From contig CAAGFP010000108.1 in assembly GCA_900769175.1 (NCBI GenBank), positions 1,107-65,106 of the forward strand: a DNA stretch of 64,000 nt, in the 5' to 3' direction. Below the pieces are notes generated by a model. That model was not told where the DNA came from. It ran no database searches and saw nothing but the letters and a program-made list of their open reading frames with translations. The position numbers were made by a program, and so were the translations under genes. How positions within the stretch are numbered: position 1 is the first letter of the stretch; every line of letters begins with the position of its first letter. Source of the stretch: Lachnospiraceae bacterium. GTDB taxonomy: Bacteria > Bacillota > Clostridia > Lachnospirales > Lachnospiraceae. This document shows positions 9,652-50,652 of this stretch, one piece after another.

Positions 9652-9690
9652 TATTATAAAACTGAATATTTTTCGCTTCAAGTTTTTTCT
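9652..9690 (-). promoter_or_regulatory. putative sigma-A promoter of guaA (-35 TTGAAG, 17-nt spacer, -10 TATAAT; minus-strand sense)
   Basis: The reverse complement reads 'cTTGAAGcgaaaaatattcagtttTATAATatgg', about 55 nt upstream of the guaA ATG. Confidence 0.45.
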
Positions 9691-9812
9691 TTTATTCTTA
9701 TAAAATATTTTGTTTCTTTTCTTCAAATTTTTTCTTTTATCCTAATAAAATAATGTTTCTTTTCTTCAAATTTTTCTTTTATTCCAATAAAATATTTTGT
9801 TTCTTTTCTTAC
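9690..9812. repeat. three tandem ~45-bp AT-rich repeat units between spoIIID and guaA
   Basis: Unit consensus is 'ttcaaRttttttcttttatYcYWataaaataWtttgtttcttttc'. The units are contiguous. Each unit, read in guaA sense, carries a TTTGAA(G) -35-like hexamer. The array ends at the spoIIID stop codon. Confidence 0.7.
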
Positions 9813-10096: not shown

Positions 10097-10139
10097 AGAA
10101 TGCCTCTATTGCTTTTTTACATCCTATGAATCAACCGGA

Positions 10140-10260
10140 TAAAATATTCCTATCGCGCGAGTGCGCATCCTTCGCGGAGCGTTTGTTATGTAATAGAAAA
10201 TTCGGGGGAATTTCCTATTACATAACAAAACACGGCAAAGAAACATTCTTTGCCGTGTAA
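10140..10260. repeat. intergenic composite of terminator hairpin (10231-10257), a second 11-bp-arm hairpin (10186-10228) and GC-rich 'box A' motif (10146-10166)
   Basis: 'cgcgcgagtgcgcatccttcgcggagc' recurs at 22988 and 43133. 'cacggcaaagaaacattctttgccgtg' is a classic terminator downstream of the preceding gene. Confidence 0.6.
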
Positions 10261-22961: not shown

Positions 22962-23078
22962 CGCGCGTACGCAAGCAACTATCTTCTTTACGCGCGCATG
23001 CGCATCCTGCGCGGAGCAAAGAATCTCGCAAGCGAGATTCTTTGCTCCGGTTGCGTGTTGTGTAAGCAACTTTCTACT
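22961..23078. repeat. composite copy of the dispersed GC-rich intergenic repeat family (modules A and B plus a 17-bp-arm hairpin)
   Basis: Contains 'acgcaagcaactatcttcttt', 'acgcgcgcatgcgcatcctgcgcggagc' (box A), the perfect hairpin 'cggagcaaagaatctcgc-aag-gcgagattctttgctccg', and 'gttgcgtgttgtgtaagcaactttctacttt' (box B). Confidence 0.65.
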
Positions 23079-23984
23079 TTATTTCACACATCCGATTAAT
23101 TCATGAATATCTTCAATTCGGTGTTTTTTCATATAACCTTCTATTCCGTCTATCACAGCAAGAGTCGCATAGGGATTTACAAAATTCATTGCGCCGACGG
23201 AAACCGCAGCTGCACCTGCCATAATAAATTCAAGCGCATCTTCTCCCGTTGCGATTCCGCCCATTCCGATAATGGGAATCTGCACGGCATTCGCACACTG
23301 GTAAACCATACGTACGGCAACCGGTTTGATGGCAGGGCCGGATAATCCACCCGTTTTGTTGGCAAGAAGGAAGGTTCTTTTTTCTACATCGATTTTCATA
23401 CCGGTAATCGTATTGATCAGCGAAATGGCATCAGCCCCCGCTGCTTCTGCAGCCTTTGCCATTTCTGTAATATCCGTTACGTTCGGGCTTAACTTCATAA
23501 TGACCGGCTGTTTTGCCACTGCTTTGATTCGTTTCGTAATATCAAAGAGCGCGTCTGCTTTCTGTCCAAACGCAATAGCACCTTCTTTTACATTCGGACA
23601 GGATACATTGATTTCGAGCATTTTAACAATTTGACTGTCGCCGAGGCGTTCAACCGTTTCAAGATAATCCTCCACCGTTTTCCCGCATACATTGACAATG
23701 ACATTCGTTTCATAGTTTTTCAAAAACTCCAGATCCCGTTCCATAAACACATCGATTCCCGGATTCTGCAAACCGATGGCGTTTAACATTCCGCCATAGG
23801 TTTCTGCAACTCTCGGCGTCGGATTTCCCGGCCAGGGCACATTTGCAACACCCTTTGTCACAATTCCGCCAAGCGCATTTAAATCAACAAAATTACTGTA
23901 TTCCATACCGGAACCAAAGGTTCCCGAAGCAGTCATAACGGGATTTTTAAATTTAACTCCTGCAATGGTAACTTCCGTATTCAT
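23079..23984 (-). CDS. pyrD: dihydroorotate dehydrogenase (class 1B) catalytic subunit
   Basis: 'IAGVKFKNPVMTASGTFG' N-terminus. 301 aa. Overlaps pyrK (ATGA). Confidence 0.9.
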   Translation of the reverse strand: MNTEVTIAGVKFKNPVMTASGTFGSGMEYSNFVDLNALGGIVTKGVANVPWPGNPTPRVAETYGGMLNAIGLQNPGIDVFMERDLEFLKNYETNVIVNVCGKTVEDYLETVERLGDSQIVKMLEINVSCPNVKEGAIAFGQKADALFDITKRIKAVAKQPVIMKLSPNVTDITEMAKAAEAAGADAISLINTITGMKIDVEKRTFLLANKTGGLSGPAIKPVAVRMVYQCANAVQIPIIGMGGIATGEDALEFIMAGAAAVSVGAMNFVNPYATLAVIDGIEGYMKKHRIEDIHELIGCVK

Positions 23985-43127: not shown

Positions 43128-43250
43128 TTCGACGCGCGTGCACATCCTTCGCGGAGCATTTTTTTCATCATCGGAAATACAAAAGAATTTTCGATGATGA
43201 AAAAAACACCCAGAAATATTATAATCTGAGTGTTTTTTTTCGTCAATTGT
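43128..43250. repeat. intergenic composite of terminator hairpin, a second 15-bp-arm hairpin and GC-rich 'box A' (43133-43158)
   Basis: 'cgcgcgtgcacatccttcgcggagc', then 'ttcatcatcggaaat...attttcgatgatgaa', then 'acacccagaaatattataatctgagtgt' plus a T8 run. Confidence 0.6.
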
Positions 43251-43342
43251 ATTTCTCCCGGTACAATGATATACCAGTTCTTTCATTCGTAAGCAACTCT
43301 TCTGATGCGAGAATATCATCCCCTGAAAAAGTACTTCTTCTG

Positions 43343-49452: not shown

Positions 49453-49616
49453 TTGTATGACCATCCTTTCTTTTTTCAACGTGATTATAGCAAGACAGTA
49501 TGGGGATTGCAAGAAAAAACAACGCAAAAAAACAACGCAAGATTCTGACTTTTTTTATTTTTTTCTAGCAGATTTCAAAAAGCTTTGCTACAATAAAGAA
49601 AGACATAGAAGATAGA

Positions 49617-49690
49617 ACAAAGAATCCCGCTTGCGAGATTCTTCGCGCCGAGTGCGTGTTGCGTAAGCAACTTTCTTCTTTTCTCGCAAG
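49617..49690. repeat. upstream copy of a ~75-bp direct repeat flanking the AraC gene (hairpin + box B)
   Basis: 'aagaatcccgcttgcgagattcttcgcgccgagtgcgtgttgcgtaagcaactttcttcttttctcgcaag'. Confidence 0.7.
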
Positions 49691-50459: not shown

Positions 50460-50467
50460 AATTAAAA

Positions 50468-50545
50468 AAGAATGTGCCTTGGCACATTCTCGCGCCGAGC
50501 GCATGTTGCGTAAGCAACTTTCTTCTTTTTGCGCGAGCGCGCAAT
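50468..50545. repeat. downstream copy of the ~75-bp direct repeat flanking the AraC gene (hairpin + box B); its hairpin also serves as the acpP terminator
   Basis: 'aagaatgtgccttggcacattctcgcgccgagcgcatgttgcgtaagcaactttcttctttttgcgcgagcgcgc'. Confidence 0.7.
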
Positions 50546-50652
50546 AAACAACCCCCGATAGAAACTGCTACCGGGAGGCTTTTCGTTTATACCATTATGA
50601 TTCTAATGTCTGACAGGGATTCATTCCGTCCGAAACGTTCCGATATGAAATC

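Follow-up and report, generated by a model that had tools for sequence, protein, structure and literature searches.

Box A, a GC-rich intergenic motif, as the probable core of a dispersed and decaying hairpin-rich repeat in Lachnospiraceae-type Clostridia

Box A (GCRCATCCTNCGCGGAGC) is, at a probability that we put at roughly two in three, the best-conserved core of a dispersed, modular and hairpin-rich intergenic DNA repeat of Lachnospiraceae-type Clostridia, of which eroding copies are present in the window (the whole 64-kb stretch of DNA analysed here). The window copies are decaying fragments that accumulate substitutions, not a regulatory switch. The family is a dispersed, decaying repeat of the REP/BIME/BOX kind, possibly a mobile one, mobility being a property that we infer. 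Interspersed palindromic repeats have been much studied in Proteobacteria and streptococci; to our knowledge they have hardly been studied in Lachnospiraceae, a dominant gut family. We found no earlier description of this repeat family in Rfam or in the literature searched, in which the exact box A sequence (both orientations, as DNA and as RNA) had no match and a keyword search for MITE or REP reports in Lachnospiraceae gave nothing relevant.

Box A and the element around it

The whole window was searched with the pattern GCRCATCCTNCGCGGAGC, tolerating up to three mismatches. Three matches were detected (10163-10180, 23000-23017 and 43140-43157), all on the plus strand, without a single mismatch and intergenic; with a 5´ CGCGCG extension, they span 10154-10181, 22991-23018 and 43131-43158. 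Since dinucleotide shuffles predict 0.06 matches by chance, and none of 100 shuffles gave three, the GC-rich box reported in a preliminary description of this DNA is a genuine, non-random signal. That description had named the region 10140-10260, which does contain the first copy, and had listed three intergenic positions; three exact intergenic copies exist, but its first two coordinate pairs were 5-17 nt too low. As a unit, box A is too small, being one piece of an element of 150-190 nt, and the "second hairpin" that the description saw is part of that element. Three related units at 23014-23081, 49614-49688 and 50464-50543, which lack box A or most of it, had been overlooked.

In related Lachnospiraceae-type genomes, the complete element is 150-190 nt long and box A links two of its hairpins. 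Module M1 consists of GAACAAAG, a hairpin (P1) and a three-tier hairpin (P2) made up of stem a (GCGC...GCGC), stem b and an apical hairpin c, with an internal loop, ATTTCCTY, of 10-12 nt. Module M2 consists of box A, a T-run, an AT-rich palindrome (P3, core ATAGGAA..TTCCTAT) and an A-run. For a full copy, exactly three hairpins are predicted, with box A between them (-64.7 kcal/mol, z -7.8); bases 1-4 of box A form the 3´ strand of stem a in the predicted fold, and the rest, ATCCT(N)CGCGGAGCG, forms a linker that is essentially unpaired. At all of the low-GC loci (Agathobacter, Roseburia, 'Eubacterium', 'Clostridium', Lachnospiraceae MAGs and metagenomes), P1-P2 come before box A and P3 after it.

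Covariation analysis, which the preliminary description had suggested, bore out the stems. A plain MAFFT alignment with RNAalifold missed the true stems because they were out of register, and it was replaced by per-copy constrained folding and covariance-model (CM) alignment. The covariation score of the whole structure was above all 500 shuffles and above every slid register, and the apical hairpin c showed two-sided changes in all five of its pairs, with 97% of cells paired. The CM alignment leaves stem b partly misregistered (64% paired), and stem b therefore rests on the per-copy folds, in which at least seven different complementary sequences were seen. Of 342 pairs on one strand, only 9 are G-U, as are 15 of 345 on the opposite strand. 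Both strands are equally stable and, because there are nearly none on either, G-U pairs are uninformative as to which strand might act.

The invariant stretch in two alignments (A4 and A5) is GCGCATCCT.CGCGGAGC, and unpaired TTCCT/AGGAA motifs are kept in the P2 loop, in box A and in P3. That box A is nearly invariant across genera is in part an artefact of using box A as the query. Copies found without that query still carry close variants of it (GCGCATCTTTCGCGGAGC, GCGCATCCTCGCGGAGC and GTGCGATCCTTGCGGAGC), which implies some constraint on box A, and this constraint is left unexplained by a purely selfish-repeat model. Pairing of the 3´ strand of stem b (b3) with the CGCGG of box A, as in a terminator/antiterminator switch, was considered and rejected: stem b becomes non-CGCG in L116, L026, L053, L143 and L134, with box A unchanged.

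Truncated units in the window

Six units, every one truncated and all in one common orientation (plus), are spread over five sites of the window. Site 1 begins with a remnant of the 3´ half of P2 (10147..10162, plus strand), recognized by alignment to full-length copies as internal-loop TTCCTAT, the 3´ strand of the b-stem (CGCGCG) and a linker, AGT. P1 is wholly absent, as is the 5´ half of P2, and HMM and CM matches are limited to the 3´ part of the model. The box A core GCGCATCCTTCGCGGAGCG follows (10163..10181, plus strand, an exact pattern match), without variation across 10 contigs of the same species, and leads into P3 (10182..10231, plus strand), an AT-rich near-perfect palindrome with the core TAGAAA..TTTCCTA (-25.1 kcal/mol, z -9.5). 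The P3 core ATAGGAA..TTCCTAT is also found in L041, L048, L070 and L017. The terminator scan placed the intrinsic terminator of the upstream FKBP/trigger-factor-like gene at 10230..10258 on the minus strand (10258-10230), outside the repeat, with its T-run touching P3. The identity of this gene is taken from Pfam families on same-species contigs; exact-protein look-up gave no match for it or for pyrD, and neighbouring proteins served instead.

Site 3 has a remnant of the b-stem 3´ strand and the box A variant ACGCGCGTGCACATCCTTCGCGGAGCA (43132..43158, plus strand; pattern match, with a CM match at 43133-43159), followed by P3, TTTTTTTCATCATCGG..CCGATGATGAAAAAAA (43159..43206, plus strand; -19.6 kcal/mol, z -5.9), and aligns with site 1 at 70% identity across 74 nt. 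The preliminary description had placed box A after a terminator hairpin and a second hairpin in all three regions, with one and the same minus-strand layout at sites 1 and 3. The shared layout of sites 1 and 3 is genuine, as they align and have a long near-perfect hairpin beside box A, but the outer hairpin scores as a terminator only at site 1; the outer hairpin of site 3 was not called by the terminator scan and overlaps a minus-strand sigma-70-like promoter scoring 11/12 (43246-43218). Site 2 differs, with box A running directly into a 16-bp hairpin and no terminator called. An isolated P2 fragment at 43289..43311 (plus strand), composed of the 3´ arm of hairpin c (GTAAGCAAC), the loop TCTTCTGAT and GCGAG, was detected by a motif scan against 50510-50537 and lies immediately downstream of a histidine-kinase gene.

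Two units stand in tandem at site 2. Unit 2a (22962..23017, plus strand; CM match 22962-23019, 37.5 bits) starts immediately 3´ of the stop codon of the upstream plus-strand gene and is a P2 remnant, in which the b-stem CGCGCGTA..TACGCGCG surrounds a vestigial c hairpin and the loop ACTATCTTCTT, joined to a box A that reads GCGCATCCTGCGCGGAGC. Unit 2b (23014..23081, plus strand; -28.1 kcal/mol) is a second M1 unit with 85% identity over 67 nt to 49615-49681. Its P1, GAATCTCGCaaGCGAGATTC, is lengthened to 16 bp by GGAGCAAA/TTTGCTCC and is followed by the c-hairpin arms GTTGC..GCAAC with the loop TTTCTACTTTA; the end of the unit overlaps the pyrD stop codon. Site 5 (49614..49688, plus strand; repeat families D3 and D6) is an M1 without box A, arranged as AGAACAAAG, the P1 hairpin GAATCCCGCttGCGAGATTC, CGCGCC, the 5´ strand of stem b (b5), the c hairpin GTTGCgtaaGCAAC, the loop TTTCTTCTTTT and a degraded b3. 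It has divergent genes on either side and lies ~30 nt upstream of the start of an AraC-type gene. Site 4 (50464..50543, plus strand; CM 28.4 bits, -33 to -34.5 kcal/mol), between a convergent acyl-carrier-protein (ACP) gene and an AraC-type gene, is an M1 that ends in GCGC, with the remaining box A and P3 missing. Here P1 (GAATGTGCCttGGCACATTC) is followed by a complete three-tier P2. On the minus strand, this P1 is a hairpin with a T-run, and the same P1 heads the full elements of L185 and L186.

Copies elsewhere, turnover and relatives

Of the readings offered in the preliminary description, that of a REP/BOX-like mobile intergenic element is the one supported here, by copies that are multiple, modular, truncated, tandem and strain-polymorphic, and by an empty orthologous site in a sister species. 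That species shares the FKBP-spoIIID-guaA synteny, with site 1 empty. M1-only and M2-only copies both occur, so the modules are separable; tandem arrays were found in L135, L017 and L185, and site 2 of the window is likewise mosaic/tandem. Contigs end inside the element in L033, L063, L064, L111, L026, L167, L168, L175 and L179. An 82-nt indel corresponding to P1+P2, with GT/GTG microhomology at its edges, distinguishes L123 from the otherwise near-identical L137, and L127 from L132, and a 31-nt P1-like hairpin is found in L182 and not in L181, directly after the terminator T-run and with no clear duplication. The filled/empty pairs among the loci compared concern single modules, none involving the whole element, and their 2-3 nt microhomology fits deletion as well as insertion. 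Within-species SNPs are concentrated in the elements and reach box A itself, which changes from CGCGG to CTCGG at site 3 and from GGAGC to GGTGC at site 2, where the hairpin partner has changed to match. In a scan of a genome collection, chance matches in GC-rich genomes dominate among the matches listed, many of them inside coding sequence reading YNVLRILRGA, which we take to belong to MarR-type regulators.

Outside the window, 19 of 21 loci have the box-A strand as their C-rich strand. Copies are mostly found behind a gene, not ahead of one, and, in about 15 of 20, P3 touches the T-run of the terminator of a co-oriented gene. The neighbours (spoIIID, FKBP isomerase, pyrD, LysM-type, histidine kinase, FNT transporter, AraC regulator and ACP genes) are functionally unrelated, and we saw no consistent gene class or 5´ leader position for the element. 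Site 1 box A is upstream of a promoter, site 2 box A lies between convergent genes, and site 3 box A is probably within the 5´ UTR of the FNT (formate/nitrite transporter family) gene. The strand polarity could equally be explained by RNA-level selection in 3´ UTRs. On mobile DNA, a C. perfringens plasmid carries three copies inside 6 kb and a Roseburia plasmid carries one; the element is also present on 20 faecal 'Bacteriophage sp.' scaffolds and on one IMG/VR contig. A phage origin was rejected, as only 1 of 39 exact IMG/VR matches is a family member.

The closest likeness in habit is to the REP/BIME sequences of Proteobacteria, which are mobilized by the RAYT Y1 transposase. Both are GC-rich imperfect palindromes in intergenic positions, mostly at gene 3´ ends, multi-copy and grouped in variable mosaic clusters, with complementary stems kept and a secondary role as terminator or mRNA stabilizer; six units at five intergenic sites in 64 kb, mosaic arrays and contig breaks were found here. 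Unlike REP/BIME, the sequence is unrelated, the unit is larger, with three hairpins and a conserved unpaired 14-nt linker, and the host is a Firmicute. The RAYT transposase makes use of a conserved tetranucleotide head (GTAG/CTAC type) by the REP palindrome; in alignments A4 and A5, neither GTAG nor CTAC stands invariantly beside P1, P2 or P3, and no RAYT (Y1 HUH transposase) gene was noticed at the loci examined. Pneumococcal BOX (boxA-boxB-boxC), RUP, Enterococcus EFAR and Bacillus bcr1 are similarly short, non-coding and intergenic, with separable modules in variable combinations and numbers and with predicted stable stem-loops. The element also resembles MITEs, which are non-coding, multi-copy and 50-500 bp long, in size and variability, with 150-190 nt, covariation that is Watson-Crick and not codon-based, and strain-variable modules. 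BOX, RUP and bcr1, however, have complementary ends or terminal inverted repeats together with target duplications, as is typical of MITEs. Neither feature was found here: every inverted repeat of the element is internal to a single module, the left (GAACAAAG+P1) and right (P3+A-run) ends of within-genome copies are not mutually complementary and form no terminal inverted repeats, no transposase was found at the loci examined, and no clear target-site duplication was seen at the single-module filled/empty pairs. That the name box A is shared with pneumococcal BOX is a coincidence.

Under the repeat reading, the family would be, or would once have been, a spreading DNA element that is non-autonomous and mobilized in trans, probably by an enzyme whose substrate is hairpin DNA in single-stranded form. 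Such an enzyme would account for the polarity and also for stems that are purely Watson-Crick. Single copies would then erode through slippage deletions between short repeats. The sole routine effect on the host would be structural, with hairpins added at gene ends, some of which may act as terminators, and with an occasional supply of promoter or UTR sequence, as perhaps at spoIIID and the FNT gene.

Other readings of box A

A narrower form of this explanation, which we consider unlikely, is that an HUH-type ssDNA nuclease (relaxase-, Rep- or Y1-transposase-like) cleaves or recognizes box A, which is offered as an unpaired linker directly 3´ of a recognition hairpin, P2; the elements would then be a Firmicutes counterpart of REP/RAYT or chromosomal oriT mimics. 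Enzymes that act on lagging-strand-template ssDNA, such as those of IS200/IS605, yield strong strand polarity, and Watson-Crick stems with polarity (19/21 loci and all window copies) are what such enzymes lead one to expect. The predicted fold also leaves box A single-stranded with a hairpin on either side. Box A reads (G)AGTGCGC-AT-CCT-N-C. Where N=G (window site 2, L048, L053, L111 and L136), the copy includes CATCCTGC, which fits the MOBP nick consensus (C/T)ATCCTG(C/T) exactly; known oriTs have this consensus just 3´ of an inverted repeat (PMC3772185). The layout agrees with that description, as box A contributes its first four bases to the end of P2 and is otherwise unpaired. The AGTGCGC..CCT of box A likewise fits the Gram-positive oriT consensus NcgtNtaAgtGCGCcCTta (PMC10333310) except for a 2-nt insertion. 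MOBP/MOBQ oriTs resemble the element in having an inverted repeat directly followed by a single-stranded motif, with CATCCTGC and AGTGCGC..CCT near the published consensus, but the element occurs as many copies scattered over chromosomes that have no relaxase genes with them, and its would-be nick base varies, being mostly T or C, otherwise G, and missing in L185, L186 and L217. There is no relaxase near the window copies, and no HUH gene was seen near copies at the loci examined. The sole copy beside a relaxase operon, in L185, is not the oriT of that relaxase: in L188, a 5.6-kb Waltera plasmid encoding a relaxase 81% identical to that of L185, the element is missing from the homologous upstream region, and nothing like box A was found anywhere on the plasmid. 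Identity with an oriT was not supported by this comparison. A blastn search of 72,556 plasmids with P2 and box A recovered only two family members and no oriT regions. If the nuclease reading were true, this would be the first REP/RAYT-like or chromosomal oriT-mimic system of gut Firmicutes, one-orientation insertion would take place beside intrinsic terminators, and chromosomal segments might become mobilizable.

The remaining readings give box A a role in the host. We think it distinctly improbable that the element is kept as an auxiliary terminator or insulator, P1 and its T-run stopping read-through on the gene-sense strand and, on the opposite strand, a small box A hairpin and T-run stopping antisense transcription. 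The copies are strongly polar and downstream of co-oriented genes, a T-run follows P1 on the strand opposite box A in most copies (site 4 scores as terminator-like), and box A can be folded into a 7-bp bulged hairpin followed by T4-9. Like intrinsic (Rho-independent) terminators, P1 is a GC-containing hairpin with a T-run on the gene-sense strand at gene ends, but such terminators show no sequence conservation between loci or genera and have no three-tier hairpin, linker or second palindrome; the conserved 18-mer, three-tier P2 and P3 are all unnecessary for termination. Moreover, most copies come after a gene that is already equipped with a strong terminator, the hairpin of box A is only as stable as in shuffled sequence (z -1.0 and -1.9) and was not called by the terminator scan, and sites 1 and 3 are kept in all strains in spite of having no P1. 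Still less probable is a functional RNA, either an sRNA from the box-A strand with three CU-rich anti-Shine-Dalgarno motifs (CAUCCU, AUUUCCUU and UUUCCUAU) or a GGA-rich RNA from the opposite strand, with GCG-NAGGAUG-CGC and AUAGGAA binding CsrA-like proteins or ribosomes. Covarying stems, the unpaired TTCCT/AGGAA motifs, polar orientation and a terminator-like 3´ end on each strand are consistent with such an RNA. It is opposed by the absence of a conserved promoter upstream at either end, by G-U pairs of about 3-4%, by the frequency of truncated, tandem and strain-variable copies, by the empty orthologous site in the sister species and by the loss of half of the fold in the window copies. 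At gathering thresholds, Rfam 15 gave no match in the whole window and, for eight loci with full copies, only unrelated THF and SAM riboswitches elsewhere in the loci; in E-value mode, six loci and site 2 gave noise, with every score below gathering. The small structured RNA proposed in the preliminary description is not supported as an RNA gene: it lacks an Rfam match and a conserved promoter, has few G-U pairs, folds equally on both strands and has lost half of its structure in the window. Inspection of P3 gave no support for a sigma-70 promoter of an opposite-strand sRNA (spacings of 22-28 nt and weak -10 boxes), and a TnpB/IscB guide RNA was rejected because the ORF abutting the L116 copy has, by eye, a regulator-like C-terminus and the variable segment is a palindrome, not a guide. 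Least probable, and very much so, is that box A is the operator of a DNA-binding regulator shared by spoIIID, the FNT transporter and pyrD. It is a conserved GC-rich 18-27-mer within AT-rich spacers, and the site 1 copy immediately precedes a putative -35/-10 pair for spoIIID, which would be sigma-E-like by the known Bacillus sigma-E consensus. Box A is not palindromic, however, its neighbours have unrelated functions, it is absent upstream of spoIIID in the sister species, and its placement is inconsistent (promoter-upstream, probable 5´ UTR and between convergent genes). With no fixed position of box A relative to promoters and with within-species SNPs in it at sites 2 and 3, the shared protein-binding site that had also been proposed is not supported.

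A dispersed, decaying repeat would account for recurrent MAG assembly breaks, and its GC-rich boxes should not be labelled riboswitches or operators in annotation. The presence or absence of modules and the tandem copy number could be used as strain-level markers. The scientific interest lies in what holds the ~18-nt linker near constant across genera while the surrounding stems drift, and in what fixes the orientation; if one enzyme does both, it would represent a new mobilization system and perhaps a genetic tool for poorly tractable hosts. For the genes of the window, the consequence is small, as the copies are eroding passengers, one of which adjoins the spoIIID promoter and one of which is probably in the FNT leader.

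Box A in the window

The 18-mer GCRCATCCTNCGCGGAGC, the GC-rich core that we term box A, has exactly three matches in the window, at 10163-10180, 23000-23017 and 43140-43157, all on the + strand and all intergenic (3/3). Dinucleotide shuffles give a chance expectation of 0.06 matches, and no additional match with up to three mismatches was found in the window. The preliminary description was therefore correct in placing the motif at three positions, though its coordinates for the first two copies were 5-17 nt too low. With the 5´ CGCGCG extension, the box spans ~27 nt. The first and third copies (sites 1 and 3) had also been proposed to share one layout, in which a terminator hairpin is followed by a second long hairpin, box A and the promoter of the next gene. 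The two sites do align, at 70% over 74 nt, and a long, highly significant hairpin adjoins box A at each. The outer hairpin of site 1 scores as a terminator, on the minus strand, of the FKBP-type gene upstream. No terminator was called for the outer hairpin of site 3, which overlaps an 11/12 sigma-70-like promoter directed at the FNT (formate/nitrite transporter family) gene. Site 2, flanked by convergent genes, has a build unlike that of the other two.

The sigma-70-like match (TTGACG-17-TATAAT, 43218-43246, minus strand) occupies the loop of what had previously been called a terminator hairpin. If this predicted promoter is used, P3 (the element's third hairpin) and box A of site 3 would fall in the 5´ UTR of the transporter mRNA.

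Architecture of the element

Box A belongs to a larger element. When 185,579 species-representative genomes were scanned for box A, the matches listed were mostly chance ones in GC-rich genomes; among the matches listed, 15/15 low-GC loci have one extended architecture around the box. These come from Agathobacter (including A. ruminis), Roseburia, 'Eubacterium', 'Clostridium' and Lachnospiraceae or Clostridia MAGs, and a metagenome scan added ~10 further loci. On the box-A strand, the element starts with an A-rich left end (GAACAAAG) and a hairpin, P1, with its apex near CGCTTGCG. Next is a three-tier hairpin, P2, composed of closing stem a (GCGC(C)...(G)TGCGC; box A contributes its first four bases as the 3´ strand), stem b and apical hairpin c, with an internal loop of 10-12 nt, about ATTTCCTY, on the 3´ side. 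The remainder of box A, ATCCT(N)CGCGGAGCG with a variable base N, leads into a T-run, P3 (a long AT-rich palindrome with core ATAGGAA..TTCCTAT) and an A-run. A full copy at one related locus (L186) folds into exactly P1, P2 and P3 (-64.7 kcal/mol, z -7.8). The part of box A outside stem a, located between P2 and P3, is essentially unpaired, and the opposite strand folds with equal stability. Searches of Rfam 15 with the window and with full-copy loci were negative at both gathering and permissive thresholds, and a search of a paper collection for the exact box A sequence found nothing.

The window holds six units at five sites, all on the + strand and none complete (0/6). Site 1 (10147-10231) retains half of P2, box A and P3; site 2a (22962-23017) a P2 remnant and box A; and site 3 (43132-43206) a P2 remnant (the 3´ strand of stem b), box A and P3, with a small P2 fragment nearby at 43289-43311. 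Sites 2b (23014-23081) and 5 (49614-49688), which are 85% identical, consist of M1, the module of left end, P1 and P2, as does site 4 (50464-50543), with GCGC at its end. The window copies are decayed.

A coding sequence reading YNVLRILRGA in GC-rich Acidobacteria, Planctomycetes and others contains the same 18-mer. This match has no relation to the repeat, and many chance matches of the kind overwhelmed the genome scan (L002, L004, L011, L014, L023, L039, L046, L047, L051, L065, L071, L089, L100, L110, L114 and others); presumably these encode MarR-type regulators. Likewise unrelated to the repeat are a THF riboswitch (L070, 5254-5357, 87 bits) and a SAM riboswitch (L063, 4013-4110, 65 bits) at two retrieved loci.

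A dispersed, modular and eroding repeat

Constrained folds gave the same three-tier shape for all 21 distinct P2 sequences, with at least seven unrelated complementary sequences in stem b (GCGCG/CGCGC, GCGG/CCGC, GGGATTCGGG/CCCGAATCCC, GGATTTGC/GCAAATCC, GAGACGCG/CGCGTCTC, CGCCGC/GCGGCG and GTGC/GCAC); stem c is as variable. Covariation, earlier suggested as a check, was found: in a covariance-model alignment of 34 copies, in which stem b is partly out of register, the overall score was higher than in any of 500 shuffles or any slid register, and the apical hairpin changes both sides at 5/5 pairs with 97% of cells paired. G-U pairs are few (9/342 on the box-A strand, 15/345 on the other) and the two strands are equally stable. 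A pattern of this kind is easier to reconcile with DNA palindromes, or with arms that template switching keeps identical, than with a transcribed RNA; it gives no strand assignment. The structure is probably maintained at the DNA level.

M1 (GAACAAAG-P1-P2) and M2 (box A, T-run, P3 and A-run) are separable, and either is found alone. Four metagenome contigs with near-identical flanks are separated by a clean 82-nt indel corresponding to P1 and P2, with GT/GTG microhomology at its edges. L017 and L185 each carry a full unit beside a deleted one and L135 has a tandem array of 159-nt units. Assemblies stop within the element in many contigs (L033, L063, L064, L111, L026, L167, L168, L175 and L179). 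At the orthologous spot before spoIIID, a sister species has no element, with FKBP-spoIIID-guaA synteny kept and 72% FKBP protein identity. Two sister-species contigs with identical FKBP protein (L181, 3500-3670; L182, 3646-3846) are distinguished by an insertion of 31 nt, ACGAAAGAGTCGCAAGCGACTCTTTATTAAG, that immediately follows the terminator T-run and is itself a P1-like hairpin. Element sites are fixed within the window's species. Within-species SNPs are concentrated inside the elements and alter box A itself (CGCGG to CTCGG, among other changes, at site 3; GGAGC to GGTGC, with a matching change in the hairpin partner, at site 2), indicating that the window copies are not under strong purifying selection. 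The family thus behaves as a dispersed, modular, eroding repeat that is multi-copy, polar and strain-variable. The REP/BOX-like element first suggested was the right class, with a unit larger and more modular than had been seen.

Orientation, carriage and possible mechanism

The + strand is the C-rich strand across the whole window, and the box-A strand is the C-rich strand in 19/21 other loci. On the opposite (gene-sense) strand, a co-oriented gene usually precedes the element; in ~15/20 copies, judged by eye, the start of P3 abuts the T-run of the intrinsic terminator belonging to this gene. The flanking genes (spoIIID, FKBP isomerase, pyrD/pyrK, LysM-type protein, two-component system, FNT transporter, AraC regulator and ACP gene) have no common theme. 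The element is mainly chromosomal, and in IMG/VR only 1/39 exact matches was a family member. Copies were also found on a C. perfringens plasmid from goat faeces (three within 6 kb), a Roseburia plasmid (one, with divergent box GTGCGATCCTTGCGGAGC) and 20 faecal scaffolds labelled 'Bacteriophage sp.' and lacking annotation. Spread across genera can accordingly be accounted for by horizontal carriage. At L185 (C. perfringens plasmid p21-D-5b, NZ_CP119189.1, 49747-55842), a mobC-relaxase pair adjoins the repeat. Across its C-terminal two thirds, the pair shares 98% identity with a truncated relaxase carried by ~150 Campylobacter plasmids sized 43-47 kb.

We infer a non-autonomous DNA element that would be spread by a trans-acting enzyme, with copies eroding afterwards, presumably by slippage deletions. 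The best lead to the enzyme is the resemblance of box A, written (G)AGTGCGC-AT-CCT-N-C, to relaxase nick sites: the MOBP consensus is (C/T)ATCCTG(C/T), just 3´ of an inverted repeat (PMC3772185), and a Gram-positive oriT consensus is NcgtNtaAgtGCGCcCTta (PMC10333310). A site for an HUH single-strand nuclease would fit the layout of a hairpin followed by an unpaired motif, the Watson-Crick-only stems and the strand polarity. However, the L185 relaxase has a homologue (81% identity) on a 5.6-kb Waltera intestinalis plasmid that carries no box-A-like sequence anywhere and has no element in the homologous upstream region, and the base at the putative nick position differs among copies; we thus consider an HUH site unlikely. 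P1 is followed by a T-run on the gene-sense strand and is terminator-like. A terminator module selected by the host, possible as a side effect of P1, is less likely: it leaves the conserved linker, P2 and P3 unexplained, and box A hairpins are no more stable than shuffled sequence. A riboswitch or cis-regulator is disfavoured by the lack of a gene association and by copies mostly after rather than before genes. The small structured RNA and shared protein-binding site proposed earlier fared no better: an sRNA gene is at odds with the lack of a conserved promoter at both ends, the truncated, variable copies, the near absence of G-U pairs and the Rfam result, and an operator with the inconsistent placement and the polymorphic, non-palindromic box. 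What makes the repeat interesting is that box A is conserved for no evident reason and that the polarity of the copies is strict.

Several other features were noted near the window copies. Just upstream of the spoIIID GTG start is GGAATATT-14 nt-CATAGGAT (10097-10153, minus strand), which by the Bacillus consensus resembles a sigma-E-type promoter, with a putative -35 next to the TTCCTAT loop remnant at site 1. In the sister species, where the repeat is absent, AATACTT-N13-CATAAGAT is found at an equal distance. Between spoIIID and guaA, a 45-nt AT-rich tandem repeat (9676-9810; 3.1 copies, 87% matches) is present as one, two or three units in other strains of the same species, so that the spacer ranges from 128 to 216 nt. 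Finally, a hairpin between the ACP gene and site 4, CTCCCGGTAGCAGTTTCTATCGGGGG (50552-50577), carries a T-rich tail on each strand and resembles a terminator that works in both directions; its stem has a 1-nt deletion in one strain variant.
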